Virus record (IMG/VR): IMGVR_UViG_2873063797_000001
Coordinates: 1 to 64,000 of that record
Source of the DNA: a virus
Taxonomy: Duplodnaviria; Caudoviricetes
DNA length: 64,000 nucleotides
Reading direction: 5' to 3' (one strand)
The notes beneath the pieces are model-generated. The model had not been told where the DNA came from and searched no databases. It was given only the letters and a program-made list of their open reading frames with translations. The stretch's first letter is position 1. Each line of letters opens with the position of its first letter. Below are positions 491-59,254 of this stretch, piece by piece. Position numbers and translations under genes: made by a program.

Positions 491-2017
491 TCAGCGCCTT
501 CCTTGTAGGCGATGGTCGCTGTAGTGCTGGCTTCCCAAGCCCTGGCTTGATGGATCCGCCAGCTCAGTTAGGGCGTGCACGGCAGCGTCCATGCGGTCTG
601 GGGAGTCCATGCCAGGGATCCAGGTGACCATCTGTCGTTCCAGGTCAGGGAACTCCCCCACGTGGTGGACGTGGCCCTGTTCATACAGTTGGGCGATGGG
701 CTCTGCCCTCAATCGTTTGCCTTGCTTCGCGTTGACCTCGATGAGCCGGGGCATCGGACGGCCCTCGGTCCGGCCGGATCGTTGCAGCTCCTGCCATGCC
801 TGGATGAGGACCTGTTTGGTCATGTCGCCGCCGAAGTTCGTCTCGACAACGAAGGCGTCTGCGTCGATGTCCAGTGCGAGGAGGCAGGCCTCCAGGCCCC
901 AGGCGTTGGCGCCGTGCCTGCCTGAGCGGTCGGCGAAGAGGTAGTGCTCTCCGTCGCTGTCGCGGCCGGCGGCGATGATGCCGGTCTCGTCGTTGACGGT
1001 GCCTGACCCGCCGGAGGGGTCGATCGCTACGAGGCTGCGGGTGAGGTTGACGCCGCGGAAGGCGGCGGGGCTGATGCGGTTGCTGGTGATCCACGACCAT
1101 TGCCAGACTCCGCCCTCGAGCGGTCTGGGCTGCTGTTGGTAGAGGGCCCACCAGACGCGTTCACCTACGGATTTTCGGATGCGGGCGTAGTCCTCCTCGT
1201 TGTACCGCTCGGGCCAGAGGGCGTCGCCGGGTTGCCGGCCGAGGGGGTCGTCGGGGGTGAGGGCGATGGCGGGCAGGTCGATGACGATCCAGTCGTCTGG
1301 TTCTTCTTTGAGGAGCCGTCCGGAGAGGTCGTCGTCGTCCCAGCGGGTGTTTACGAGGAGGACGGACCCTTGGGGTTCGAGGCGGGTGAGGAGGACGGAC
1401 TGCCACCAGTCCCAGACGCGGTCGCGTTGGGTGGGGCTGCCGGCGTCCTCGGAGCCTTTGAAGGGATCATCGACGCAGGCTACGTGGGCGCCGCGGCCGG
1501 TCAGAGGGCCTCCGACGCCTGCGGTGACCATGCCGCCTTCGTGGCCGTCGATGTCGAACCGGTTCGCGGCCTGCGACCCGTACTTCAGGTTGATCCCCAG
1601 CATGGGAGCGTGTTCGGTGATCGTGTTGCGGATCCAGCGGCCGTGGTCGTCGGCGAGGTGCGCTGCGTAGGAGGCGAGCATGAACCGGTGCTCGGGCTGG
1701 CGGCGCAGGTACCAGGTGGGCCCCCAGCGGGAGGTGCGCCGGGACTTCCCGGCACGTGGGGGCATCGTGACCATCGCTCGGATCCGTTCCCCGCGGGCGA
1801 TGCGCTGGTAGATCCGGTCGATGATGTCGAGGTGCCTGGCCTGCATCTCCTTGCCGTGGGTGAGGACCGCGGCGAGGGCGCCCGGGGAGCGGTCCATGGC
1901 CAGTTCGGCTTCGACTGCGGCGAGCTGGGCGCGGAGGTCACTGGAGGCAGTGCGAATGATGTGCCGGCGCTCGGGGGCGGGCAGGGCCCGGTAGCGGGCG
2001 AGGATGCCGTCAGGCAC
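491..2017 (-). CDS. terL: Terminase large subunit
   Basis: Walker A MPPRAGKS, Walker B ACVDDPFKG, RNase H-like nuclease motifs AIDPSGG and DRMDAAVHAL. Confidence 0.95.
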   Translation of the reverse strand: MPDGILARYRALPAPERRHIIRTASSDLRAQLAAVEAELAMDRSPGALAAVLTHGKEMQARHLDIIDRIYQRIARGERIRAMVTMPPRAGKSRRTSRWGPTWYLRRQPEHRFMLASYAAHLADDHGRWIRNTITEHAPMLGINLKYGSQAANRFDIDGHEGGMVTAGVGGPLTGRGAHVACVDDPFKGSEDAGSPTQRDRVWDWWQSVLLTRLEPQGSVLLVNTRWDDDDLSGRLLKEEPDDWIVIDLPAIALTPDDPLGRQPGDALWPERYNEEDYARIRKSVGERVWWALYQQQPRPLEGGVWQWSWITSNRISPAAFRGVNLTRSLVAIDPSGGSGTVNDETGIIAAGRDSDGEHYLFADRSGRHGANAWGLEACLLALDIDADAFVVETNFGGDMTKQVLIQAWQELQRSGRTEGRPMPRLIEVNAKQGKRLRAEPIAQLYEQGHVHHVGEFPDLERQMVTWIPGMDSPDRMDAAVHALTELADPSSQGLGSQHYSDHRLQGRR

Positions 2018-2914: not shown

Positions 2915-5221
2915 CTACGTCTCGTCGGTGATGGGGAGGCGGCCGAGGGCGTAGGTGCCGCGTTCGCGGCCGCAGTCGGCGCCGCGGTGGATGAGTTCCT
3001 TGCGGGTCATGGCGCTGAGGGTGTTGTCGAGGGTGGAGCCGGAGACGCCGGAGACGCGGCTGATGGTGTCGCGGCTGGTGTAGATGGTCTCGATGCCGGC
3101 GGGGTCGGTGAAGCTCTGGAGCGCTTCGAGGATCTTCTCTTCGGCGGTGGGGGGCTTCTTCGGGCCGAGGTCGATACCGGAGAGGAGAGAGGCGGTGCCG
3201 TCGCTGGGGTCGCTGTCGGTGCCGTCTTCGTCGCCGAGGATGGGCGTGGCGGCGATCTCGTCGCGGTCGTCCCAGTCGGGCCAGTCGGCGGGGTAGGCGA
3301 TGGCCGTCTCGTCGATGTAGGGGGCGGCGGACTCGAGGATGAAGGTGCGCATCATCTCGGCTGCTCCGCCGGGGCCGAGGGTGTAGCCGAGGCCGAACGT
3401 GGACTTGGGGTCCTTCAGGGTGACGGTCTCGTCGTACACGAGGGGCCGTTCGACGTCCCAGGAGGCGGGAATCTGGCCGGGGTCGACGCCCTCGAATCCG
3501 GTGGTGACGAGGTGCTGCTGCCCGGAGTCGGAGCGGAGCATGACGAGGGATCCGCCCTGGATGACGTTCATGCGGAGGGCGGTGGAGCCGCCGAGCTTGT
3601 CGGCGTTCACGGCCTGGTTGACGATCGTGAGGATGATGCCGAGGGAGCGTGCCTTGGCGGCGAGCGCCTCGAGGATGATCCCGGCTTCCTTCTTGTGGTC
3701 GACGAGTTCGGACAGGGGGACGTGGGCTTCGTCGAGGATGACGCGGACCCAGGGCCGATCCGGGGTGGCGACGAAGTTCTTCATCTTGAGGCGGGCGGAT
3801 TCCTTGATGCGCCACTGGAGGAGGGCGTAGGCGACGCGGAGGGCGCCCATGACGCCGTCTTCGCCGAGGCCGTTGTAGCAGGCCATGGTTTCGACGTCGG
3901 GGTTGGAGGAGCCCTTGGGGTCGCCGTTGATGATGGCGTGGCCGTTGACGTGGTCGGCGAGGGCGACGATCTGGACGAGGCCGCCTTTGCCGGAGCCGGT
4001 GACGCCGGCGATGAAGAGGTGGCGGGCTCCGAGGTGGGGGTCGGTGAACTGGATGCGGGCGGGGAAGCCGGAGACGTGGCGGCCGACCTGTACGTATCCG
4101 CCGTCGGAGATCTTCAGGACGTCGGTGCCGGGGAAGGGGACGCCTTCCTGGAGGGGGTTGTGCTTCATGAGGCGAATCTCGCCCTTGCGGGGGTCGCCGG
4201 GGACGGGGTTGTAGGAGCAGAGGAGGGTGTTGGTGCGGAGGGCGCCGGCGAGTTCAGCGCGGTCGGGTACGGGGATCTTGTTGATGGTCTCGCCGGCGAT
4301 GACGTAGGCGACTTCGCCGCCGGTGTTGGGGTCGGTCTGGACGTCTTCGAGGTGGGTGTCGGCCATGACGCCGCCCTTGCGGCCGACCCATTTGCGCCAG
4401 GCGCCGGCGAGGGTGTTGGGGTCGAGTTCGGCAGGGGGCTGGAGGTTGACGGTGATGGTGGCTTCGCCGGAGTGCGCGCCGGGCTTGATGGTGATCCAGG
4501 AGGCGTGGGCCTGGTAGGGGGTGGCCTGGTAGGCGGAGGAAACGGTGTCGTCGGTGACGGTGACGGCCTGTCCGGGCCGTGCGGTGATGATGCCGTTCCA
4601 GCGCAAGGCGGAGAGGGTGCGGAGTTCGAGTTCCTGGCCTTTGTGGGTGCCGGTTTCGTGGTTGGAGATGATCTGGTACCAGCGGTGGACGATCTGCTTG
4701 GCGGGGGTGTCGACGGTGACTGCCGCGGGTGTTCCTGGTGGGGCGGTGATGTGGGGGGTGGTCTTCCGCTGGCGGGCGAGGATCTTGCGGAGCTTGAGGG
4801 GGACGACGGCGACGGCGGCCCACCAGCCGAGGGAGACGATGCCGGGGATGGGGTTTCCGGCGAGGTCGAGGAAGCCGGCCATGAGGGCGTCGGTTCCTGC
4901 GGGGCCTTGGGCGGTGCCCATGAGGAGGGCCATGCCGCTGGTGAGGGTGGAGGTGAAGAGGGTGGTGCGGTGGCCGCGGATGATGTCGCCGGCGGGCAGC
5001 TGGTGGAGGAGGTTGTCGGGGAGGCGGTTCATGTAGTTCGCGGCGAGGAATCCGGCGGTGCCGCCGTAGGTGATGGCGCCGAGGATGGCGGCGCTGCCGT
5101 CGAGGAGGGGTGCGGTGATGCCGACGCCGATGGGGGCGGCGATGGTGGTCCAGGCGATGGCGCGTTCGGTGGCGGCGGGGCGGGCGGGGGCGGTGGTGGG
5201 CTGGCTCATCGGGGTCTCCAT
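2915..5221 (-). CDS. FtsK/SpoIIIE-like (TraB-type) DNA translocase
   Basis: N-terminal TM segments, Walker A AGVTGSGKG, Walker B VRVILDEAH, C-terminal winged-helix-like region. Confidence 0.8.
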   Translation of the reverse strand: METPMSQPTTAPARPAATERAIAWTTIAAPIGVGITAPLLDGSAAILGAITYGGTAGFLAANYMNRLPDNLLHQLPAGDIIRGHRTTLFTSTLTSGMALLMGTAQGPAGTDALMAGFLDLAGNPIPGIVSLGWWAAVAVVPLKLRKILARQRKTTPHITAPPGTPAAVTVDTPAKQIVHRWYQIISNHETGTHKGQELELRTLSALRWNGIITARPGQAVTVTDDTVSSAYQATPYQAHASWITIKPGAHSGEATITVNLQPPAELDPNTLAGAWRKWVGRKGGVMADTHLEDVQTDPNTGGEVAYVIAGETINKIPVPDRAELAGALRTNTLLCSYNPVPGDPRKGEIRLMKHNPLQEGVPFPGTDVLKISDGGYVQVGRHVSGFPARIQFTDPHLGARHLFIAGVTGSGKGGLVQIVALADHVNGHAIINGDPKGSSNPDVETMACYNGLGEDGVMGALRVAYALLQWRIKESARLKMKNFVATPDRPWVRVILDEAHVPLSELVDHKKEAGIILEALAAKARSLGIILTIVNQAVNADKLGGSTALRMNVIQGGSLVMLRSDSGQQHLVTTGFEGVDPGQIPASWDVERPLVYDETVTLKDPKSTFGLGYTLGPGGAAEMMRTFILESAAPYIDETAIAYPADWPDWDDRDEIAATPILGDEDGTDSDPSDGTASLLSGIDLGPKKPPTAEEKILEALQSFTDPAGIETIYTSRDTISRVSGVSGSTLDNTLSAMTRKELIHRGADCGRERGTYALGRLPITDET

Positions 5222-5259: not shown

Positions 5260-5643
5260 CTATTCCTGGGTGAGCCAGCCGCGGTCGACGTCGTAGATCT
5301 CGCGGCCGACGGAGGAGCGGGCGGCTGCTTCCCCGATGCGGGAGTGGCTGGCCTTGTTCTGGTCGTGGGCGGCCTGCGCGGTGCGGGCGGTGGTGTCTCC
5401 GGCGGCGGCGTAGTCGGCGGCGGCGGCCGCGACGCCGTCCATGAGGCGGGCGACGTCGCGGGTTTCGGCGACGGTGGCCTGGTCGACGCGGAGGGCACCG
5501 ATGGATTCGGCGACGCGGGCGGTGTCCTTGGCTTCGTCGGCGATGGCCTTGGCGTGGCCGACGATGGCTTCGCTGGAGCGGGCGATGTCCTTGGCGAGGG
5601 CGGAGGTCTGCTTGGCGAGCTGGCCGTAGGTCAGGTCAGGCAT
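5260..5643 (-). CDS. 127-aa helical-hairpin protein in the transfer operon
   Basis: Ala-rich amphipathic helices; coupled to the upstream gene; good codon bias. Confidence 0.8.
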   Translation of the reverse strand: MPDLTYGQLAKQTSALAKDIARSSEAIVGHAKAIADEAKDTARVAESIGALRVDQATVAETRDVARLMDGVAAAAADYAAAGDTTARTAQAAHDQNKASHSRIGEAAARSSVGREIYDVDRGWLTQE

Positions 5644-7603
5644 TGGCGTGCCCCATCTCTCGGTAGAAGTTCATGACGGCGGGCGCGGCCTCGGGGGAGT
5701 CGATGACGGCCTTGTAGATGCCGCCGTAGCGGGTCTCGGTGTTGGCGTGGAGCGCCTTGCAGGCTTCGCTGGATCGGACGGCCCGCTTGTGGATCTCTGC
5801 TGCCTTGGTGGCTTGGACCTGGGCGGCGTCGGCGAGCGTGGACAGTGCGGCGACGAGCTTGTCGCCGCCCTTGACGCCGCGGGCCTGCTCGAGGAGCTGG
5901 GTGATCTGCTTGGCCTGCTCGTTGGCGTGGTCTTCGAGGGTGCGGGTGGCTTCGGCGACCATCGTCATGCGGTCGGTTTTGCCCTGGAGCTGCTGCTGGA
6001 AGTTGCGGAGGGTGCGGACTTCGCCGCGGCTGATGGTGGGGCGGGCCGCGGTGTCGCCGAGGTGGACGTGGGTGCTGTCGACGCCGGCTACGGGGACGGG
6101 CTGCGGGCCGGGGGCGTGCGTGGGCTTGGGCGGCACCTGCTGCTGGTAGTCGGCGCTGGAGGCGGTCTGGGTCACGGGGGTGTCCTCCGGGCTGGTGCGG
6201 GTCTTCTTGCGGTCGTTGTGGGCTTTGTCGAGGCGGGCCTTTTCCCGGCTGGCGGCTTCGGTGGTGTCGCGGTAGCCGTCGCGGGTGCCGTCGCGCCAGG
6301 CGGTGGCGTGCGCGACGGCTTTGGCGGCGCGGGTGCCGTCGCGGTAGCCGGCCTCGCGGGAGGACTGGAGGTTGACCCTCGGGGTGAGGGTGCGGGCGGT
6401 GTCGGGGCGGCGGCTGGTGTCCTTGCCGGCGTTGGGGGCTTTGGTCAGGTCGACTTTCTGGGGCGTCTTGGGGGTGCCGTCGGCGGTGGGGGGCTTCTTC
6501 TGCCCGCTGCCCGTGGTGTCCGTGTTGGGGCGGCCGGTGGCGTTGTCGGGCTTGGCCTGGTCTTTCGGGCTGGTGTCCTTGTCCGTGGCGGGCGTGGTCT
6601 TGCTGCTGGGTGTGGTGGTCTTCCCGTCCTTCGGCTTCGGGGCGGGCGTGCTGCTGCTCCCGCCCCTGCTGTCCTTGGGGTTGTCCTTGCCGGGCTTCCC
6701 GGCCGGGCCCGAGTCGCCGGGCTTCCCCGTGCCTCCGGTGTCCCCGCAGGTGTTTCCGGTGCTGGCCTGCTTGTCCTTGCCGGTCTTGGAGCGGGTGCCG
6801 CCGTCGGCGCCGGACTTCCCGGCGGTCTGCTTGTCCGCGCCTCCTCGACCCTTACCGGCGTTGCCGGAGGTGGAGGGGCTGCCCGATCCCCCGCCCGTTC
6901 CGCCGCGCCCCGGACCACCATTGCCCTTGGGGCCGGTGCCGCCGCCGCTACGGCCGACGTCCTGCTTGTGGCCGCCCGCAGTGCCGCGTCCGCTGCCTCC
7001 ACTGCCGGGCTTTCCACTCCCGGCCGGTCCCGACGTGTTCTTCGGGCCCGCGCCGGCCGCCTTTCCGGGACCGCTGGACTTACTGCTGAGGGACTTACCA
7101 GCGGTATTCGTCTTGCTGCCCTTGCCGGAATTACCGGAGCCGCTGTCGACCTTTTCGGACCGGTTGACGGTCACTGTTTCCTTGACCTGACGGGCTTTCG
7201 CCTTCTCCTTCTGAAGGTCGAGGCGCTTGTTCCGGGCGTCGGCGCCCTTCTTCCAGCGTTCCGCTCCGGCGAGCATCCACGCCTTGATGACGCTCTGCTG
7301 CTGCTTCGCGGACGCCGCCTTTCCGTTCTTTCCCGGCTCGTCCGCGGGGGCGTCTTCGGCGGTGAACACGGCGCTGCTGGTGTCGGTGACAGCCTGTTCT
7401 CCGTCGGCCGTGAGGGTGGTCGCGCCGGGGCCGAGAGTGAACGGGGTGCGGGTGGCTTCGATGGGGGCGAGGAGCCCGGCCACGCCGGTCGGCTGCTGCC
7501 CTGCGCCGCTGCTGGCGGGGGTGGTGGGTGCAGTGTTGGGGGGCGGGTCGTGGGGGCCGGGGACGGCCGCGGGGACCGTGTCGCTCGCCATCAGATTCCT
7601 CAC
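5636..7603 (-). CDS. Large low-complexity protein with a C-terminal helical-hairpin domain
   Basis: G/K/T/P-rich middle, helical C-terminus; overlaps the next gene. Confidence 0.8.
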   Translation of the reverse strand: MRNLMASDTVPAAVPGPHDPPPNTAPTTPASSGAGQQPTGVAGLLAPIEATRTPFTLGPGATTLTADGEQAVTDTSSAVFTAEDAPADEPGKNGKAASAKQQQSVIKAWMLAGAERWKKGADARNKRLDLQKEKAKARQVKETVTVNRSEKVDSGSGNSGKGSKTNTAGKSLSSKSSGPGKAAGAGPKNTSGPAGSGKPGSGGSGRGTAGGHKQDVGRSGGGTGPKGNGGPGRGGTGGGSGSPSTSGNAGKGRGGADKQTAGKSGADGGTRSKTGKDKQASTGNTCGDTGGTGKPGDSGPAGKPGKDNPKDSRGGSSSTPAPKPKDGKTTTPSSKTTPATDKDTSPKDQAKPDNATGRPNTDTTGSGQKKPPTADGTPKTPQKVDLTKAPNAGKDTSRRPDTARTLTPRVNLQSSREAGYRDGTRAAKAVAHATAWRDGTRDGYRDTTEAASREKARLDKAHNDRKKTRTSPEDTPVTQTASSADYQQQVPPKPTHAPGPQPVPVAGVDSTHVHLGDTAARPTISRGEVRTLRNFQQQLQGKTDRMTMVAEATRTLEDHANEQAKQITQLLEQARGVKGGDKLVAALSTLADAAQVQATKAAEIHKRAVRSSEACKALHANTETRYGGIYKAVIDSPEAAPAVMNFYREMGHANA

Positions 7604-42537: not shown

Positions 42538-43665
42538 TCAGTGGGCGGTGTCGGCAGTCTCGTCGACCAGGCCCCGGGCCAGCTCTTGCAACCGCTGCGG
42601 AGCGCGGTCCCGGGCCATCCTGTTGATGATCTCCACCAGTTCGAAGAACAGGTCCTCGTCGGGCATCTTCGCCCCGACGAGCATGGCGACCGCGCCGGGC
42701 TTGTCCCACTCGATCGGCCGCGGGGACCGGGCCTCGGCGGGCGTGGACCGCGGTTCGGGGATCACCTCCGTCGCGGGCGGTCGGACGGAAGTCGGTGCAG
42801 TTGTCTTCTCTTCTGACGGCGTCGGGTCGACGGACCCACTAGGTGGGGAAGGCGTCGGCGCCGGCGTGAGGGCAGGCGCCGGAGCCGTTTCCGGCCGGTC
42901 GGCGTATACCGCGGTATACGCGTCGGGCGTCTTCTCGGGCTCGGCGGCCGTCGTCTTCGGCGCGCGGGTGACCGGAACCGGTGTCGGTGCCTGGGGCTGC
43001 TCTTGGTCTGCCTTCCACGCGGCGTACTGCTCTGCGGCGGGCAGGGAGGCGTAGCGGCGCATGTCCCGGAACGCGGTCAGCTTCCCCTCGAGGACGAGCT
43101 GCACCATCTCATCGGAGAGCCGCAGCAGGCCGATCCGCTGGTTGAACCACGCCTTGGACTTGCCCATGGCGCGGGCGGCCGCGGCCTGGTTCCCGTCGTG
43201 GAGTTCAAGCATGGCGCGCAGGCCGTCGGCTTCTTCGATGGGATTGAAGTTGGCGCGCTGCACGTTCTCGGACAGGACCGCGGCAAGGAACCGGATCCGG
43301 GACTCGGTGAGGTCGTGCCGCAGGAGCAGGTCGACGGTGCCGAGGCCGACCTGACGTGCTGCGCGCCAGCGTCGTTCGCCGGCGGCCATCACGTACCGGC
43401 AACTGTCGGGCAGCTGGCCGGCGTGCTCCGGGTACAGCTTGAGGTAGGCGGCCTTGTTCACGGCGACGCACGGCTGGAGCTGCCCGCCGCGCATGTCCTC
43501 GCCGAGTTCGGTGAGCTCGGTGTCGTCGAACGCCCGCCGCGGGTTGAGGGGGGTGGGGGCGACGGTGTCCGGGTGTACATGGATCAGGTCGGGGCGGCTG
43601 GCCCCGGGTACGGCCTCTACCTTGCTTCCGGCGAGCGAGGCGAGGGAGACGCGCTTGCCGGCCAT
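42538..43665 (-). CDS. parB: ParB/Spo0J-family partition protein
   Basis: PLNPRRAF, GQLQP, AGERRWRAA, ENVQR....IEEA and an HTH. Confidence 0.95.
   Translation of the reverse strand: MAGKRVSLASLAGSKVEAVPGASRPDLIHVHPDTVAPTPLNPRRAFDDTELTELGEDMRGGQLQPCVAVNKAAYLKLYPEHAGQLPDSCRYVMAAGERRWRAARQVGLGTVDLLLRHDLTESRIRFLAAVLSENVQRANFNPIEEADGLRAMLELHDGNQAAAARAMGKSKAWFNQRIGLLRLSDEMVQLVLEGKLTAFRDMRRYASLPAAEQYAAWKADQEQPQAPTPVPVTRAPKTTAAEPEKTPDAYTAVYADRPETAPAPALTPAPTPSPPSGSVDPTPSEEKTTAPTSVRPPATEVIPEPRSTPAEARSPRPIEWDKPGAVAMLVGAKMPDEDLFFELVEIINRMARDRAPQRLQELARGLVDETADTAH
42902..42921. repeat. Perfect palindrome, candidate parS copy 1 (inside parB)
   Basis: gcgtataccgcggtatacgc. Confidence 0.75.
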
Positions 43666-44327
43666 CAGCGGCGCCCTCCGTAACCGCGCTCCAGGGCGAG
43701 ACGGAAGTAGTCCTCGCGGGCCCGGAGGGTGGTGCCGTTGTCGGCGTACTGGGTGACGACCTTGCCTTCGGACGCCGCACGAGTGTGGATCTTGTAGCGG
43801 CGGATGACGGTCTTCGCCCGGGGCCAGCCCATCGCGTCGATGTAGGCGATGGTGTCCTCGAGGTCGGCTTTGCCGTCGCGGGGGTCCCAGGCGTTGATGA
43901 CGACCGTGTACGGCAGGCCGCGGGGGACGATGACCCGTTCGATGGTGCGGGCGGTCGGGTCGAAGGCGAGCGGCTCCGGAGGCATGGGGACGAGGACGTC
44001 ATCGGCGATGTCGAGGGCGGCGGCGAGGATGTGCTCGTTCTCGAGGCTGCCGGGGGTGTCGATGAAGATGTGCTGCCGGTCGTCGCTCTGGCCGAGGACG
44101 TCGTGGGTGACGGCGGCCAGGTTCACGGCGGTCGTGGTCTTACCGACGCCGCCCTTCTGGTTGGCGATGACGTGGATTTGCGCGCCGAGGTTTTTGAGGT
44201 CGGCGAGGCTGTCGGGGTCTTCGTGGGCGGCGGCGAAGTCGAAGGGGAGGTTGTCGCCGACGCGGTCGGCCCACCAGATGGTTGACCCTTGGGGGTCGGT
44301 GGACACGACGAGGACTGAGGACGGCAT
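43665..44327 (-). CDS. parA: ParA-family ATPase with permuted motif order
   Basis: VLVVSTDPQGS (A') precedes NQKGGVGKT (A), then HIFIDTPG (B); GGAG RBS. Confidence 0.9.
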   Translation of the reverse strand: MPSSVLVVSTDPQGSTIWWADRVGDNLPFDFAAAHEDPDSLADLKNLGAQIHVIANQKGGVGKTTTAVNLAAVTHDVLGQSDDRQHIFIDTPGSLENEHILAAALDIADDVLVPMPPEPLAFDPTARTIERVIVPRGLPYTVVINAWDPRDGKADLEDTIAYIDAMGWPRAKTVIRRYKIHTRAASEGKVVTQYADNGTTLRAREDYFRLALERGYGGRR

Positions 44328-44451
44328 GGGTGCTCCGTTTCCGTGTGCTTCCCGGGGCGTGGCGCTCCGGTACTCGGACGGGGCATAGCTTCTCAGATGG
44401 CCCGGGTGGGGTGTGGGATTGGGCCGGTTTCGGGCGGTGCCGTCGGCCCGG

Positions 44452-44473
44452 GGCGTATACCGCGGTATACGCC
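44452..44473. repeat. Perfect palindrome, candidate parS copy 2
   Basis: ggcgtataccgcggtatacgcc upstream of parA. Confidence 0.75.
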
Positions 44474-44531: not shown

Positions 44532-44547
44532 GTATACCGCGGTATAC
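44532..44547. repeat. Perfect palindrome, candidate parS copy 3
   Basis: gtataccgcggtatac. Confidence 0.75.
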
Positions 44548-45208: not shown

Positions 45209-45997
45209 TCAGGCGGCGCCGAAGAGCCGGCGGGGTCCACTGCCGCCTGCCTTCTCGCGGCGGGCTCGGGCGATGGCGGCCTGGCGGACGGCTTCCCGTT
45301 CGTCGACCTGGGCGGCCTCGAGTCGGTCGGTCTCCCACACGGCGTCGCGGTGCTCGGTTTCGGGTTGGCGGCCGGCGCGGAGGGCGGCTTCCTGTCGGGT
45401 GCGGGCTTCGATCTCGTAGGGGTCGATGCGCTGGTGTTGGGTGCCGCGGTGCTCGAGGGCGAGGGCGAGCGTGTGTTGGTAGCCGGGGTGGGCGGTGTCG
45501 CGGGTCTTCACGGGCCCGGCCGGTACGGGGGCCTGCTCGGGGTCGAGGGCGTCGGCTGCGGTCCGGTGGTCGCCGCCGGGGGCGAGGACGCGGATGCTGC
45601 GGACGGCGGGCTTGCCGAGCTGCCGGTTGAGGTGGGCGACGAGTTGCTGCTGGAAGAGCCGTATCTGGGTGGCGTAGGCCGGGGAGGACGGCCGGAGTTC
45701 GAGGATGCCGCGGTCGGGGTCGTAGGCGACGGCTTGGACGGTGGTCGCGAGTTCGGTGGGGGCGATGGTGGCCCACTGGTCGAGGAGGTTGCCGCCGTTG
45801 AGGCCGGCGTCCCAGCCTTGTTCGGCTTGGAGGCGTCCGAGGATGTTGCCGAGTCCTTGGGGGTCGCGTCCTTCGCCGCGTACGGGTCGGGGTCCACGGC
45901 GGGTCTTCTTCGCGGGCGCGGGTGCGGTTTTGGCGTTGGCGCGGGCGGCGGCGAGCGCCATGCGGGCCAGATCAGCACCGGAACCCTGCTCGGTCAC
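45209..45997 (-). CDS. DciA (DUF721)-like protein
   Basis: RDPQGLG..L..L....GW......LL.QW......LEL..SSPAYATQ.RL...L...V..IRV. Confidence 0.8.
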   Translation of the reverse strand: MTEQGSGADLARMALAAARANAKTAPAPAKKTRRGPRPVRGEGRDPQGLGNILGRLQAEQGWDAGLNGGNLLDQWATIAPTELATTVQAVAYDPDRGILELRPSSPAYATQIRLFQQQLVAHLNRQLGKPAVRSIRVLAPGGDHRTAADALDPEQAPVPAGPVKTRDTAHPGYQHTLALALEHRGTQHQRIDPYEIEARTRQEAALRAGRQPETEHRDAVWETDRLEAAQVDEREAVRQAAIARARREKAGGSGPRRLFGAA

Positions 45998-46200
45998 TGG
46001 GCACCTCCGTTGATCGCTCGGGCGACGGCAAGGGCGTGTTGAGCGTCTTCGGGCAGTGCAGCGTCCTCGCGGAGTTCGACGCCTTCCCAAGAGGCCAGCC
46101 AGCGGGTCACGGGGACCCTCAGCCTGGCCAGGTCAGCGGCAGTGGTGTGGTGGCTTTGGAGGGTCCGAACAGCGGCAGCGATCTCGTCGGCAATGATCAT
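45994..46200 (-). CDS. Hypothetical protein
   Basis: GGAG RBS; coupled. Confidence 0.65.
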   Translation of the reverse strand: MIIADEIAAAVRTLQSHHTTAADLARLRVPVTRWLASWEGVELREDAALPEDAQHALAVARAINGGAQ

Positions 46201-46211
46201 GGCGGGTCTCC

Positions 46212-47600
46212 TCAGAAGGCGGGGGCGAGGGTGTCGCGGCGGGCGTTGATGGCTTCGAGAGCGAGGGTCTGGTCGACGAGCCGGTTCGTGTACAGGCGGC
46301 GGGCGTATACCTCTCCGCGCATTTCGATCGCGAGGAAGATCAGGCTGGGGTTCTTCATAGCGTCCACGCGCATGTCGACGACCTGCTGCTTGGTGAGGTC
46401 TTCGAGCGCCAGCGGCGACTCGTCGACCGGCGCATTGCCGGGTGCCAGGTGCTCCCGGATGGCGGCGAACGCCTCGTCGATGGCGCGGCGGGCAGCAAGG
46501 CTGCGGGGGCCAGCAACGGGGGCGTCATCGAAGCCGGTGTGACGGTCCTTGGCAGCGGCCCGGGACTCTTCCCACATGGTCACGTAGCCGGCGCGCATCG
46601 TGGCGGTCATGCCTGCCTTGCCGCGGAGGCGGTCGGCAAGCATCCCGGAGGGGCGGCGGACGCCGTGGGCGGGCATGGGAATGGATTCGGCGACGGCCTG
46701 GACTTCGCGGACAGTCCAGCCCGCGTCTGAGAAGTCCTTCAGCACCCAGGAGACCCTCGGGACCGAAGCGCCGTGCAGCCACGGAATGGTGGTGACGGCT
46801 TCCTTGCCGAACTGGTAGCGGCGGCCGACCTTGTTCAGGGTTCGCGGTCCGCGGTTGGACTTCTTCGGGGTGGGGGACTTGCTTGGCCCGCTTGCGAGCT
46901 TGCTCTCAGGGGGGGAGTAAGTGCGGTCCGCAGAAGAAGTGCCAGAAGTACCCACCTGCATTGGGGTGCAACGGGTACGGCCCGAAACGGGGGTACGGCG
47001 GGGTCGGCGGCGGGTCTTCCGGGCGGCCTTCTTGGCGAGCTTTCCGAGGAGGGGACGGTGCTCGGGGGCGGCGCCGACGGGACGGCGTTGCACCCCTTCA
47101 CCGGTGGTGCGGATACCGAGGGCGGTGTCGAAGACGGTGGGGATGGTGCGCTCGTACACGGACGCCTGGTTGCCCTCGCCGCGGACACGGGTGCCCTTGC
47201 TGCGGTACACGAGGAGGCCGGCCTCCCGCAGCATGCGCAGGTGGTACTTCACGGACCGTTCGGACACCTTCGTCTTGCGGGCGAGGTAGGCGATGCCGGG
47301 GCGGCACTCCTTGAGAGCGGAGATTTCCTGGGCGATGGCGAGGGTGGTGTCGTTCATGGCGCGGGGGCCGTCGGTGTGGGGGGAGGTGTAGATGCCGCTG
47401 CCGTGGACCCAGTGGACGGCCTGCATCCAGGAGTGGGCGCAGGTGGTGATGCGGCCGGTGGTGGTGTGCAGCCACTGGTGCGTTGTGGGCACGGCGAGAC
47501 GGGTTTCGGGGCACTGGGTGTCGTCCGTGCGGGGGGATGTTCCTCGCGAAACGGGCGCCGAGGAAGCGCCAAGCTGACAAGAAGGGGTGCGCTGAGGCAC
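46212..47600 (-). CDS. Winged-helix Rep-like protein (second candidate initiator)
   Basis: CRPGIAYLARKTKVSERSVKYHLRMLREAGLL wHTH; basic middle region; upstream of the DciA-like gene and parAB. Confidence 0.6.
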   Translation of the reverse strand: MPQRTPSCQLGASSAPVSRGTSPRTDDTQCPETRLAVPTTHQWLHTTTGRITTCAHSWMQAVHWVHGSGIYTSPHTDGPRAMNDTTLAIAQEISALKECRPGIAYLARKTKVSERSVKYHLRMLREAGLLVYRSKGTRVRGEGNQASVYERTIPTVFDTALGIRTTGEGVQRRPVGAAPEHRPLLGKLAKKAARKTRRRPRRTPVSGRTRCTPMQVGTSGTSSADRTYSPPESKLASGPSKSPTPKKSNRGPRTLNKVGRRYQFGKEAVTTIPWLHGASVPRVSWVLKDFSDAGWTVREVQAVAESIPMPAHGVRRPSGMLADRLRGKAGMTATMRAGYVTMWEESRAAAKDRHTGFDDAPVAGPRSLAARRAIDEAFAAIREHLAPGNAPVDESPLALEDLTKQQVVDMRVDAMKNPSLIFLAIEMRGEVYARRLYTNRLVDQTLALEAINARRDTLAPAF

Positions 47601-50669: not shown

Positions 50670-51722
50670 TCAGGCGGCGACGGTAGAGCCGTCCGAAGCA
50701 ACCGCCGGAATACCGAAGGCCGCAGCAATCACGTGCTGAGCCAGCAGACAGGGGACAGCATTCCCCACCTGTTCCAGTTGCTTGGTGCGACTCCCCTGGA
50801 ACGGATGGTCCGCCGGGAAGGACTGGAGAACGGCAGCGTCCCGGACAGACAAGCGGATCGTGTCGCGCCGACCGCCCCGGTAGGCGGGCAACTCTTCGGC
50901 AGGCACAAGCCGCTTGCAGTCGATCCACCGACCGGCATCGCGCTCGCCGTAGAGGGTGGCTCGGGCGCCGGAACCACCAACGCAGGAGGGATCCGGACCG
51001 CCTGCCGCAGTCCCGACCATCACGGTCAGGGCCGGCCGGTGCGTCATGCCCCATCCGATGGCCTCGGCCATCGACACCCATGGCTTCAGTCCAAAGCCTT
51101 CTTGGACGTTGGTGGCGCCCTTGCGGTAGCGATGGTGGGTCGGCTCCGGAAGCCGGGCTGTGCCGTCCAGTGTGGCGACGAGGAACGCCCGAGTACGGGT
51201 CTGGGGGACGCCGTACTCCTCGGCGGACAGTCGACCGGTGGCGACGCTGTAGCCCTCCGGTTGCAGGAGCTCAGCGAACTCCTCCCACACCGAAAGAACG
51301 GTGGGCACCTGCTCCAGGAGCAGCGTCCGGTACGGGCGCCCACCGTCCACCGCAGCCAGAGCCCAGCGCAGTGGCTCCAGGACCAGCCCGGTCCGCTCAT
51401 CATCGAACCCGGCCAGCGCTTCGGTGATGGCCTGCCGGGCCGCCAGCCGCCGCGCAAGGTCGAGGATGGTGTCCAAGGCGGCCCGACCGCGGCCCTTCCC
51501 GCTGACCGAGAACGTCTGGCAGGGCGGGGAACCGATGAGGTCCGTGGCGTCCGGGAAGTCGGCGGGCCCATATGTCCGGACATCGCCCTCCACCGTGGCC
51601 AGACCCGCAGCGCGGCGGGTCTCGCAGGCGGCATGATCGCGTTCGATGCCGATCACGTCCAAGCCGAGCCGGGTCGCCCCAACATCCCAGCCGCCGGGGC
51701 CAGCGAACAGGTCGACCATCAT
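50670..51722 (-). CDS. C5 cytosine DNA methyltransferase
   Basis: DLFAGPGG (I), GSPPCQ (IV), EQV (VI), PQTR.R (VIII), LQSFP and QVGNAVP (IX-X). Confidence 0.92.
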   Translation of the reverse strand: MMVDLFAGPGGWDVGATRLGLDVIGIERDHAACETRRAAGLATVEGDVRTYGPADFPDATDLIGSPPCQTFSVSGKGRGRAALDTILDLARRLAARQAITEALAGFDDERTGLVLEPLRWALAAVDGGRPYRTLLLEQVPTVLSVWEEFAELLQPEGYSVATGRLSAEEYGVPQTRTRAFLVATLDGTARLPEPTHHRYRKGATNVQEGFGLKPWVSMAEAIGWGMTHRPALTVMVGTAAGGPDPSCVGGSGARATLYGERDAGRWIDCKRLVPAEELPAYRGGRRDTIRLSVRDAAVLQSFPADHPFQGSRTKQLEQVGNAVPCLLAQHVIAAAFGIPAVASDGSTVAA

Positions 51723-52975
51723 GCGGCGGCCTCCAAGGCCACGCCGACCGGGATGCCAGTAGCGGCCGAGACGACGTGCGCCGCCAAGAGCGGCGGAACG
51801 GCGTTGCCGACCTGCTCGAACTGCTTCGTCTTCGTGCCCTGGAACGGGTAGTCCGGGCGGAACGACTGAAGGACAGCGGCCTCGGCGACGGTGATGCGCA
51901 CGGTGTCGGGGCTGGCGAACTGGGACTCGCCGCCGGCGTCGCGGTTGCGGTGGCCGGGCGGCGCGATCCGGTTGGTGGCGCACACCGTGGTGGCCGGGCG
52001 CTGCTGGACCCACTCAATTCGAGCCGAATTGTTGCCGAAAGCCATGGTCGGCGCGGGCTCCTCAATGCCGCGTATCGCGGCCCGCTCCTGGTTGCCGTTG
52101 CGCAGCACCCACTGCCCACCCGACTTCGAGGTGAAGGCGGGCGCCGGCGCGGTGTACGGGTCGGCGGTCTGGCGGCTGCCGTCGGCGCGCTGGTCGCGAT
52201 TCGTGTGGAGCACCCACGAACGGGCCTTCTCAGTGAGCGCCCACGACGGCCGGTCGGCGGGAAACTCGTTCCCCCCAGCAGTCTTCCGGTCCCCGCGGGT
52301 GTTCACGGTCAGCCCCTCGACCCATCCGAGCGCTTCCGCCATGGACACCCACTGCTCCAGGCGCTCACCGAACAAGTCGTCCGCCGGCTCCTTCGCATGC
52401 GTCGGCGCCGGCGCGGTCACCGGCCGAACCCGGGAGGCGATGAGGATCGCCCGCTTGCGGGTCTGCGGGACGCCGTAGTCGGCAGAGTTGAGGACCCCCA
52501 CCCACGTGCTGTAGCCCCACTGCTGGAGGTACAGAGCGTACTGACGCCAAAGCGGGAGAACGTCGGGGACTTCCTCCATGCACACCCACTCGGGGCGGAG
52601 GTCGTACAGCCAGCGCATCGGCTCCGCGGCCAGCAACGACCGTTCGTCCTTGCACTGGGCGACGAGTTCGGCCCGACTGTCCCGGCCGTGCGCCAGGTCG
52701 TGGGCCGCCTGGTGCACCAGCGGCTGGTCCGCCAGGCCCCCACGCTTCCCCGCCCGGGACCACGCCTGGCACGGCGGTGACGCGATCAGACCCTTGATCC
52801 GACCCACGAACGGGGAGGTGGGGTAGGCGGCGACGTCGGTCTGGATGACAGGGTGCCCGGCGGCGTGCGCGGTCAGGCACGCCGCCCGGTCCCACTCAAG
52901 ACCGATGTCCGTCAGCCCCAGCAGGCGCAGGCCCTCAGACCAGCCCCGCGGACCGGCGAACAGGTCGACGATCAC
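51719..52975 (-). CDS. C5 cytosine DNA methyltransferase with an expanded target-recognition region
   Basis: DLFAGPRG, ASPPCQ, EEV, PQTRKR, LQSF, QVGNAVPP. Confidence 0.92.
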   Translation of the reverse strand: MIVDLFAGPRGWSEGLRLLGLTDIGLEWDRAACLTAHAAGHPVIQTDVAAYPTSPFVGRIKGLIASPPCQAWSRAGKRGGLADQPLVHQAAHDLAHGRDSRAELVAQCKDERSLLAAEPMRWLYDLRPEWVCMEEVPDVLPLWRQYALYLQQWGYSTWVGVLNSADYGVPQTRKRAILIASRVRPVTAPAPTHAKEPADDLFGERLEQWVSMAEALGWVEGLTVNTRGDRKTAGGNEFPADRPSWALTEKARSWVLHTNRDQRADGSRQTADPYTAPAPAFTSKSGGQWVLRNGNQERAAIRGIEEPAPTMAFGNNSARIEWVQQRPATTVCATNRIAPPGHRNRDAGGESQFASPDTVRITVAEAAVLQSFRPDYPFQGTKTKQFEQVGNAVPPLLAAHVVSAATGIPVGVALEAAA

Positions 52976-54204
52976 GCGGCGCTCCTCTCCGTGTCGCCGC
53001 CCTGTGCGGCCTTCTGCTGCTTCACAGCCGTCTCCAGCAGGTCCAGCAGCTCACGGAACGGCATCTGCTCCCTTGCCGGCGGCGGGCCCTCCACGTACAG
53101 GTCGATGACTTCCTTCACCGTCGCCTCACCACGAATCTGGGTGAGCGCATCAGCGTTCATGCGCATGTCGATCGCCTGGAGATACAGCCTGTCCAGGACC
53201 TCGTCATCACCACCCTCAGCAAGAACCTCGGCCTCCACGATCCCGCCGTTGCGGGGCCCGTCGTACGCGGCCTCGGCGGCGGGGTCGATGTCGGAGGGCT
53301 CCGGGTCGCCAGACTCGGCGGCGGCCATGGCTTCGGCCCGGGAGGCGACCTGGCGACCGATGGCGGTGATCTGGTCGAGATACTCCGTCGGGGCACCAGC
53401 GTTCTTCGCCTCCTGCCACAGGGCGCGGACCGCGTCGGCGGACTTGGCGGCCTGGGCCTCGGCAAGGTAGTCGCGGCGCTCCCGCTGCACCGGCGGCGTG
53501 TTCGGCGTCGACTGCACAACGCTCATACGCGGCTGCTCCTGGTCGGCGTTGTCCGCCTGCGCCATCTCCTCGGCCGTGTAGACGCCGGCGAGGTCGTGCG
53601 GGAACGCCTTCCGAAGCGCCAACGCTTCGGCGCACTTGGCGATCTGCCCGGCGGGCATCTTTGCCCACAGGCCCTTGGGGTTGCCGTCCGGAAACGTCTG
53701 CACGTACTCGCGGAACGTGGCGACCGCGGAGAAACGCTGCCCATTGCGGACCACGGTCACCTTTGCGGCCGCCGGCGGCTCGTCGGCCAGCCACACGTCA
53801 CGCCACCGACCGGACGGGTCGCACCACACGGTGTCCTCGTAGCCGTACGTGCCGCCGGTCTGCGCGGTCACGCGCTGGGCGATGACGCGGTACCCGTCGA
53901 TGCCGGTCTGCGGCGTGTAGACCTCGCGGCCGTCCTTCTTGCTGAACCGGCCGATGAGGTAGATCTGCCGGGAGAACGGGTCGAGGCCGGTGCGCTGGCA
54001 CAGGTGCAGGAAGCCGGACAGTTCGGCGGCGGTCACCTGGTCCTTGATGCCGGATTGGCGGAGGACGGCGGCCTGCTCGGGCGTCCAGTTGGTCTGGTCG
54101 GGGCGGATGGCGAGGGCGCCGCCGGTCTTGGTGGGCTGGTTTTGGGTGTGCGAGGTGGGGCCCTCCGCCGTGCTGCTGGCGAGGGCCTCGGTGGTAGCAA
54201 CCAC
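52972..54204 (-). CDS. bet: Bet/RecT-family ssDNA annealing protein
   Basis: FLHLCQRTGLDPF..QIY...QTGIDGYR..AQR...W.KMP..QIAKCAEALALRKAFP. Confidence 0.92.
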   Translation of the reverse strand: MVATTEALASSTAEGPTSHTQNQPTKTGGALAIRPDQTNWTPEQAAVLRQSGIKDQVTAAELSGFLHLCQRTGLDPFSRQIYLIGRFSKKDGREVYTPQTGIDGYRVIAQRVTAQTGGTYGYEDTVWCDPSGRWRDVWLADEPPAAAKVTVVRNGQRFSAVATFREYVQTFPDGNPKGLWAKMPAGQIAKCAEALALRKAFPHDLAGVYTAEEMAQADNADQEQPRMSVVQSTPNTPPVQRERRDYLAEAQAAKSADAVRALWQEAKNAGAPTEYLDQITAIGRQVASRAEAMAAAESGDPEPSDIDPAAEAAYDGPRNGGIVEAEVLAEGGDDEVLDRLYLQAIDMRMNADALTQIRGEATVKEVIDLYVEGPPPAREQMPFRELLDLLETAVKQQKAAQGGDTERSAA

Positions 54205-57956: not shown

Positions 57957-58181
57957 ATGACGCTGGTAGCGGGCGAGTACGAGTTCACGTGCGACGAATG
58001 CGACGGGGACGGGAACCTGCAATACATCCGCATTACGACCGAGGGCGACGACGAGCCCGAACTCGTCTGGGACAAGTGCGACGACTGCCACGGCGAAGGC
58101 CGGCTCCTGGTCGACGAGGAAGAAGCGGCCGAGAAGATCCGCTGGGGGCAGACCCCGACACGCACCCCTGCCGCCGCCTAG
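57957..58181 (+). CDS. DnaJ-type zinc-finger small protein
   Basis: CDECDGDG ... CDDCHGEG. Confidence 0.75.
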   Translation: MTLVAGEYEFTCDECDGDGNLQYIRITTEGDDEPELVWDKCDDCHGEGRLLVDEEEAAEKIRWGQTPTRTPAAA

Positions 58182-59254
58182 TCTTCGTCCCCGCCCGGAA
58201 GACGCTCGGCAATTCGGGCGGCGATGCGGTAGCCGGGGCTGTTGTCGAGGCGGCCGCGCCGGCGGTCGTAGCGTCGGGTGGTCCGCGGGTCCTTGTGGTC
58301 GGCGAAGTCCTGCACGTGGTGGAGCTTGGCGTCGGGCGCGTCCAGGGCGTGGGTGACGGCGTCGTGCTTGAGGACGTGCGGGTGGAAGGTGGCCGCGTTG
58401 GCGATACCCGCCTTGGCCGCTAGGCGCCGCACGAGGCGCCACACGTAGGCCGGGTCCAGTGGGTTGCCGTTGCGGGTCTGGAACAGTGGTCCCGTGGTGC
58501 GGCCCGCGAGGTAGACGTCGATGGCGTGCCCGGTGGCCGGTGGGACGACCTTCGGTTTGCGGCGGCCACCCTTCAGGCGGACGTTGAGAATGCGGTGCCC
58601 CTTGTCGTAGCCGAGGTCGTCGGCTTGGGCGCCGAGGGCGGAGTCGAGGCGTAGCGCCACGGTGTAGATGGCGAGCAGGAGGGCGTAGGAGCGGGGTCCG
58701 TCCTCGTAGGCCGCGGCGAGCAGGCGCGCGGACTCTTCTTCGGTGCTGCCTTGGGTGTCGGAGCCGTCCTGGTCCAACTCGGGGCGGGCGACGAGGTCGA
58801 AGGGGTCGATGCCGTCTCCGAGGGCACGGACCGCGTACTTGTGGAAGCTGGAGCAGGCGGAGAGCAGGTTGGCGCGGGCGGCGTCGGAGCGGGGCGGACC
58901 GGTGGGGGCCTTCTGCCCGCGGTGGCCGCCCTTGACGGGGACCATGGTGGGTGCGGTTTCGAGGTGGCGGGAGAACGCTTCGGCGAGGGGGAAGCGGGCT
59001 TGGAGCGGGTGGGTGCCGGTCTCGCGGGCGTAGGTGTCCCACACCCGGTATTGGCGGACGTACGTCTGCCGGGTGTTCTTCGTCTTCTGCCGGGCAATCC
59101 AGGCGCCTACGAGACCGGGGTATGGGTCGCCTGCCGGGTAGTGGCCAGCCAACTCGGTGGCGAAGTCGAGGGCTTCGGAGGGCCAGTCGTCGGCGGCGCT
59201 GCGGGTGCGCGCGGCGAGTTGGCCGCCGCGCGCTCTCGGGACGAGCTCGGTCAT
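58178..59254 (-). CDS. Tyrosine recombinase/integrase
   Basis: VALRLDS (R), LKGG (K), HPHVLKH, FADHKDPRTTRRYD (H, Y). Confidence 0.88.
   Translation of the reverse strand: MTELVPRARGGQLAARTRSAADDWPSEALDFATELAGHYPAGDPYPGLVGAWIARQKTKNTRQTYVRQYRVWDTYARETGTHPLQARFPLAEAFSRHLETAPTMVPVKGGHRGQKAPTGPPRSDAARANLLSACSSFHKYAVRALGDGIDPFDLVARPELDQDGSDTQGSTEEESARLLAAAYEDGPRSYALLLAIYTVALRLDSALGAQADDLGYDKGHRILNVRLKGGRRKPKVVPPATGHAIDVYLAGRTTGPLFQTRNGNPLDPAYVWRLVRRLAAKAGIANAATFHPHVLKHDAVTHALDAPDAKLHHVQDFADHKDPRTTRRYDRRRGRLDNSPGYRIAARIAERLPGGDED

Follow-up and report, generated by a model that had tools for sequence, protein, structure and literature searches.

A ParA-type ATPase with non-circularly swapped motif modules in a pZL12-like Streptomyces phage-plasmid

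Introduction

In ParA/MinD ATPases the Walker A, A' and Walker B motifs follow one another in an order that is treated as fixed, and the core strands of the fold run in parallel from one edge of the sheet. The closest described structures are those of ParF of TP228 (PDB 4dzz, 4e07, 5u1g) and of a Synechocystis ParA (PDB 3cwq), proteins of about 205-220 amino acids (aa) that have no N-terminal helix-turn-helix (HTH) and that carry a deviant Walker A motif with a signature lysine, an A' aspartate and a Walker B motif. Their chains can be divided into a module A (strand beta1, P-loop and helix alpha1), a module B (A'/switch-I strand) and a module C (Walker B strand and remaining body). We describe here a parA gene located in the first 64,000 nucleotides of IMG/VR record IMGVR_UViG_2873063797_000001, a tailed-phage record (Caudoviricetes); this whole 64-kb stretch is called the window below. 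The product of the gene shares size, absence of an N-terminal HTH, and motifs with ParF and 3cwq, and its predicted fold matches theirs (Z 16-18, root-mean-square deviation (rmsd) 2.2-3.1 Å). In contrast to these proteins, to which it is about 20-30% identical, its modules are arranged B-A-C and not A-B-C.

Orthologous ParAs with the B-A-C order are encoded, within the same parA-parB arrangement, by two phage-plasmids of roughly 90 kb: pZL12.17c of the plasmid-phage pZL12/phiZL12 (GQ919031) and the ParA of pSLE1 from S. leeuwenhoekii. Both are annotated simply as ParA in their records, and the publication describing the synteny of pSLE1 and pZL12 makes no remark on ParA motif order (PMC4487206). 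A literature search on permuted motif order in ParA or P-loop proteins, the coverage of which was incomplete, found no paper on such an order in ParA, and the matches to 'permuted' concerned FHA domains, phage genome ends and RNAs. A P-loop unit that is not the first in the chain is known from the circularly permuted GTPases YlqF/RbgA and RsgA/YjeQ (G4-G5-G1-G2-G3), a natural and conserved family. These GTPases belong to the TRAFAC and not to the SIMIBI class, and their permutation is circular and ancient, whereas the one described here is non-circular and occurs among kin that are still 50-70% identical. The capsid protein of the Bordetella phage BPP-1 is described as a natural non-circular permutation of the HK97 fold in which the three-dimensional fold is kept (PMC3863775); it is a precedent in kind, with unrelated fold and function.

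Results

The Walker A' motif precedes the P-loop in the ParA product

The parA gene (Table 1) is a single uninterrupted frame running from ATG 44327-44325 to TGA 43667-43665. Together with the Shine-Dalgarno sequence 5 nt ahead of the ATG, this agrees with the uninterrupted frame and good ribosome-binding site of an earlier annotation made from the letters of this DNA, called here the sequence-only reading. Homologues are 219-228 aa long, in keeping with the ATG as start, and the in-frame upstream extension, which reaches GTG 44501, contains no second P-loop. In the translation, VLVVSTDPQGS (residues 5-15) is followed by NQKGGVGKTT (56-65) and then by FIDTPG (88-93). The Walker A' motif is thus placed ahead of the deviant Walker A motif (KGGVGKT, 58-64), and Walker B comes last. 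Module B, which in a canonical ParA follows helix alpha1, opens the chain.

The displacement was also apparent in alignments with proteins of canonical order. The sequence match to 3cwq (E 4e-10) was returned by phmmer as three non-colinear pieces, in which query residues 52-73, 4-30 and 84-200 correspond to chain residues 3-24, 30-54 and 68-182, respectively. In BLASTP, residues 47-218 of the query aligned with residues 1-218 of the canonical relative P0123, with a 46-residue gap exactly at the A' module of P0123; query residues 1-46 share 56% identity with it. Taken module by module, identity amounts to 72%, 56% and 63% to P0123 and to 77%, 59% and 70% to a second relative, P0122. Combined with the translation, the alignments to 3cwq and P0123 confirm that the swapped order is real, as the sequence-only reading had proposed in describing a ParA with transposed Walker A' and P-loop segments. 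The same reading had called the permutation non-circular, and this holds because B-A-C is not a rotation of A-B-C; a rotated motif order, which characterizes the circularly permuted P-loop NTPases, is found in the sister forms with the layout B-C-A (see below) and not in B-A-C.

Profile searches assign the product to the ParA family. The Pfam models AAA_31 (40.6 bits) and CbiA (34.9 bits) both match above their cut-offs, through the stretch of the deviant Walker A motif only, and PHROG 164 (ParA-like partition protein) matches with an E of 8e-22. As a consequence of the swapped order, profile models recognize such ParAs piecewise, Pfam through 23 residues and NCBIfam in two stretches. Among the features that define the ParA/Soj/MinD (SIMIBI) ATPases, the deviant Walker A (KGGxGK[ST]) with its signature (first) lysine, the A' strand with its terminal aspartate (hhhhDxDPQ) and the hydrophobic Walker B strand with its terminal aspartate are all present; the succession of Walker A, then A', then B is not, the order being A', A, B. 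Motif order is the single departure from the definition of the family, and the protein is a topological variant and not another fold. It belongs to the small (ParF/type Ib-like) ParA group.

The B-A-C order recurs in a large family

The sequence-only reading had suggested looking for the permuted order in a wider family, and a large one was found. When 5.8 billion proteins were searched with the parA product, 940 matches were obtained; the best 120 of them are 90%-identity clusters that cover the whole query at 64-98% identity, and all have the B-A-C order by the positions of their motifs. In an alignment of 20 sequences (65-94% identity), the order and the junctions between modules are identical in every row. 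Full-length colinear copies were detected by tblastn in at least 36 finished plasmids of the genera Streptomyces, Kitasatospora and Embleya, with sizes between 65 kb and 3.1 Mb, and a B-A-C parA is present in 19 of the 301 Streptomycetaceae species genomes sampled. The ParA of pZL12 shares 66% identity with the window's ParA over 99% of the length. Proteins of this kind are already in the databases, as 'ParA family protein'.

Two explanations under which the order would be peculiar to this record were rejected: recurrence in independent assemblies rules out a local misassembly, and the clusters, finished plasmids and genomes counted above rule out a singleton. Two of the 19 genomes with a full-length match carry one in-frame TGA each in the gene (G245:C30:83179-83832 and G272:C43:30834-31487); these two copies may be pseudogenes or may reflect sequencing errors.

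The catalytic residues are invariant and all modules are under purifying selection

In the 20-row alignment, D11, K58, K63, T64 and D90 are invariant, together with 60 other columns. The invariant stretches comprise D11-P12-Q13, W19, L27-F31, N56-T65 (including K58-G-G-V-G-K63-T64-T65) and D90-T91-P92-G93. The catalytic motifs, said to be intact in the sequence-only reading, are therefore not only intact in this protein but invariant across the family.

Ratios of nonsynonymous to synonymous substitution rates (dN/dS) were calculated by the Nei-Gojobori method. Against the 88%-identical orthologue of an S. pseudovenezuelae plasmid, dN/dS is 0.12 for module B, 0.24 for module A and 0.13 for module C (0.15 overall). 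The B-A-C ParA is under purifying selection in all three modules, which bears out the selection that had been suspected from the motifs.

The predicted fold is that of ParF and Soj

The proposed comparison of topology was made on an AlphaFold2 model computed from the 20-row alignment (predicted local distance difference test score (pLDDT) 86.3, predicted template modelling score 0.87), and the predicted fold is that of ParF and Soj. Along the chain, the model consists of strand 5-9, a helix, strand 30-33, a second helix, strand 50-54, the P-loop, helix 63-78 and strand 86-90, after which the usual alternation continues. Foldseek matched it to ParF, TP228 ParA, 3cwq, Soj and MinD; its global alignments were muddled (template modelling score 0.5-0.66, rmsd up to 9 Å), as expected since the match is non-sequential. 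With VIA-align, two alternative superpositions on ParF were obtained. The first places model residues 1-219 on chain residues 29-206 (Z 18.2, 174 residues, 2.5 Å) and the second places 49-219 on 1-206 (Z 17.8, 161 residues, 2.2 Å), the C body being common to both; the Z scores for Soj and MinD are 16.1 and 15.2. Because both alternatives align, modules A and B would each coincide with the corresponding canonical module, arranged around one common body. The simplest reading of the model is that each occupies its ParF position, with the chain connectivity alone being altered, and that the MinD/ParA three-dimensional fold is retained. As the core strands run parallel from a common edge, the new links (from module B into beta1, and from alpha1 across a 7-residue linker to the Walker B strand) would preserve the usual right-handedness of the crossovers.

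Three layouts coexist in one clade of ParAs

When 1.84 billion representatives were searched exhaustively with HMMER, 639 matches were obtained, most of them in three stretches, the signature of a different module order. Three layouts, A-B-C, B-A-C and B-C-A, were found in a single clade (tree support 100/99), and the nearest relatives of the window's ParA, about 50-70% identical, span all three. Canonical members (ParAs of actinobacterial plasmids, for example P0123, P0127 and P0129; the genera include Pseudonocardia, Actinoplanes and Micromonospora) resemble the window's ParA in a body that is 54-63% identical, in the alpha1 tail NLAAV..DVLG, which is specific to the clade, and in the common C-terminal LALELGYGG, and differ from it by their A-B-C order. 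The B-A-C layout comprises the family of the window's ParA and the divergent P0136.

The B-C-A members (P0122, P0290, P0293, P0301, P0124, P0142 and P0213) are composed of the same three modules and likewise begin with module B; unlike in the window's ParA, the P-loop module is C-terminal, preceded by a linker of 9-15 residues, and the order is a genuine rotation. This layout, seen in about 8 clusters that are mostly metagenomic, is far less common. The motifs are invariant in these proteins, and in the two loci examined the genes, encoding P0122 (L003:1018-1713) and P0124 (L004:4001-4696), lie directly upstream of parB. A B-C-A model (pLDDT 80.5) aligned with ParF over residues 4-191 on 28-206 (Z 16).

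All three modules of the window's ParA are closest to relatives from within the clade, and the clade-specific alpha1 tail accompanies module A at every location. Both observations point to a swap by intragenic rearrangement rather than by capture of a foreign P-loop. No duplication intermediates (A-B-C-A-B-C or B-A-B-C) were found among longer proteins, where just the canonical P0271 with an over-called N-terminal extension came up; this is weak evidence.

On the best tree, three changes lead to B-A-C and three to B-C-A, and the canonical P0125 is placed within the main B-A-C clade (support 99/92 in the 19-row set). In approximately unbiased (AU) tests, a single origin was not rejected for all B-A-C members (p 0.215), all B-C-A members (0.251), the main B-A-C group without P0125 (0.259) or all layouts with B first (0.061). 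At least two rearrangement events are needed, and the AU tests are compatible with a single origin for each layout. P0125 would have arisen by either reversion or recombination; its placement outside the clade was not rejected by the AU test (p 0.26).

The gene is part of a predicted partition cassette on a phage-plasmid

The ATG of parB overlaps the parA stop codon by one base (TGATG), and parB is predicted to be translationally coupled to parA. The parA-parB arrangement is kept in locus L001, in pZL12 and in the B-C-A loci. The partner of ParF in TP228 is the ribbon-helix-helix protein ParG, whereas here it is a protein with ParB_N and HTH_ParB domains.

A 16-bp parS-like palindrome, GTATACCGCGGTATAC, occurs in three exact copies in the window, where 0.01 would be expected, and is absent from the rest of the 8.39-Mb genome, even when two mismatches are tolerated. 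The same palindrome is found upstream of parA on the S. pseudovenezuelae plasmid, and pZL12 has a variant, GTTTACCGCGGTAAAC, within its parB. GTATACCGCGGTATAC is likely to serve as both centromere and operator. The locus has the components of a ParABS cassette, namely a ParB-family gene in the same operon and a repeated centromere-like site nearby as the candidate ParB site. A similarity of GTATACCGCGGTATAC to canonical parS half-sites was also observed.

The window makes up the first 64 kb of a separate contig of 89,658 bp (69.2% G+C) in a two-contig assembly, the other contig being an 8.30-Mb chromosome with 72.2% G+C. Besides the terminase gene, the contig carries phage structural genes at 64-89 kb (portal, major head, head decoration, tape measure, Dit-like and minor tail), as well as more than one methyltransferase gene and a replication-initiator-like gene. 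From this context and gene content, the contig was assigned to the pZL12/pSLE1-like Streptomyces phage-plasmids. The two genes just upstream of parA, one with a DciA-annotated counterpart and one with weak matches to replication initiators, possibly form a replication module that adjoins the partition cassette. Two large open reading frames with high G+C content at third codon positions (GC3) beside the terminase gene (2915-5221 and 5636-7603, both on the minus strand; 768 and 655 aa) had no PHROG match at E 1e-5.

Table 1. Features of the window, with positions numbered from its first nucleotide
Feature	Position	Strand	Basis or remark
parA	43665..44327	-	220 aa + stop; segment-swapped (B-A-C) ParA-type ATPase; translation, Pfam, PHROG, family order
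Module B of parA	44184..44327	-	residues 1-48: A'/switch-I strand VLVVSTDPQGS, helix, LPFDF strand, second helix; 3cwq/ParF alignment
Module A of parA	44073..44183	-	residues 49-85: strand beta1, deviant Walker A K58-G-G-V-G-K63-T64, helix alpha1, 7-residue linker; 3cwq/ParF alignment
Module C of parA	43668..44072	-	residues 86-220: Walker B strand HIFID90-TPG and remaining ParA body; colinear with 3cwq 68-182, ParF, Soj, MinD
Shine-Dalgarno GGAG	44333..44336	-	5 nt ahead of parA ATG; direct sequence reading
parB	42538..43665	-	375 aa, GERRWRA box; Pfam ParB_N 41 bits, HTH_ParB 37.8 bits, both above cut-offs
parS-like palindrome, copy 1	44455..44470	.	128 bp upstream of parA
parS-like palindrome, copy 2	44532..44547	.	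upstream of parA
parS-like palindrome, copy 3	42904..42919	.	within parB
Open reading frame	45209-46090	-	just upstream of parA; counterpart in S. pseudovenezuelae plasmid annotated DciA family protein
462-aa protein	46212-47600	-	just upstream of parA; weak PHROG matches to replication initiators (E about 1e-6)
Large terminase	491-2017	-	
DNA methyltransferase	51719-52975		
RecT/ERF-type annealing protein	52972-54204		
Integrase	58178-59254		

Discussion

The explanation that we favour, with a probability of roughly 0.85, is that the protein serves as the functional partition ATPase of a pZL12-like Streptomyces phage-plasmid of 89.7 kb, and that in this ATPase module A has been moved behind module B by an intragenic rearrangement. 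The shifted piece would be a unit of about 35 residues consisting of beta1, the P-loop and alpha1. On this view, the three-dimensional active site, made up of the signature Lys58, Lys63/Thr64, Asp11 and Asp90, would be left unchanged, and for this reason the protein is expected to act like other ParAs. ATP binding would be accompanied by formation of a sandwich dimer, through the signature Lys58, and by nucleoid binding. Hydrolysis of ATP would be stimulated by co-translated ParB, acting through its N-terminal peptide while loaded on the 16-bp parS-like palindromes, and the low-copy prophage-plasmid would thereby be partitioned.

Several points weigh against this explanation. The product scores 71.6 bits, in two stretches, with the NCBIfam model NF041546 (ParA_partition), below the cut-off of 180 bits; as the canonical P0123 also stays under it (89.9 bits), the whole clade lies outside this equivalog. 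Against the pZL12 orthologue, dN/dS is 0.49, an unreliable value that was set aside because dS is probably saturated or compressed by divergence and GC3 bias. The co-location of Asp11 and the P-loop was deduced from two sequential alignments and not from a non-sequential superposition, and AlphaFold may favour the canonical fold for any ParA-like sequence. Moreover, ATP binding, dimerisation, stimulation by ParB and partition are activities that we infer.

Part of this bears on the position of module B. If the N-terminal module were the leftover of a partial duplication, it would lie outside the A' position as an N-terminal extension, with for example a regulatory or ParB-binding role, and the enzyme would be without a proper switch-I aspartate. 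Model confidence is indeed somewhat lower over residues 1-40 (pLDDT 72-87). However, D-P-Q, W19 and the LPFDF strand are invariant and the module has the lowest dN/dS of the three; the linker between alpha1 and the Walker B strand has just 7 residues and holds no substitute strand, and model residues 1-48 fall on ParF from residue 29 onwards in the first of the two superpositions. We regard a displaced module B as improbable. A decaying gene or pseudo-enzyme, that is, a rearranged ParA devoid of ATP hydrolysis and carried along with parB, is very unlikely: the in-frame TGA in two of the 19 family genomes would be in its favour, but all catalytic residues remain invariant over 65-98% identity, every module is under purifying selection, and the coupling to parB is kept in plasmids that reach megabase size, for which active partition is required.

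Co-option of ParA-like NTPases for defence is reported to be widespread (bioRxiv 10.64898/2026.10.19.760177), and recruitment to a role other than partition, such as immunity or the positioning of other cargo, was considered accordingly. Here the immediate partner is a ParB_N and HTH_ParB protein with a GERRWRA box, and the operon has parS-like palindromes on its flanks and lacks an attached effector gene, so that such a recruitment is most improbable. An odd order created in this record by misassembly, a frameshift or a chimeric read can be practically dismissed, given a complete assembly in two contigs and the recurrence of order and junctions in at least 120 clusters of independent origin, among them finished plasmids and pZL12, the sequence of which dates from 2009. 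A working partition ATPase with rearranged modules thus accounts best for the locus.

A bolder proposal, which we hold tentatively and at less than even odds, is that the beta1-P-loop-alpha1 unit is a movable cassette that was relocated several times independently, either behind module B or to the C-terminal end, with P0125 as a possible case of return to the first place, and that all three layouts are functional. If this were true, the clade would offer a natural series in which the core of a P-loop NTPase was recently rewired in its topology.

The function proposed for the window's ParA is ordinary and its topology is unusual, and the chief interest of the protein lies in the three layouts found among close relatives. 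For pZL12-like elements and many large plasmids, the partition cassette can now be defined as parA, parB and a distinctive palindrome. For ParA ATPases, a large natural family departs from a motif order held to be fixed in the catalytic core, apparently under functional selection. In the clade, one P-loop fold exists in three connectivities, a rare matched set that can be used for testing routes of permutation, for example through duplication-deletion intermediates, and for testing whether the beta-(P-loop)-alpha unit folds or docks semi-autonomously.

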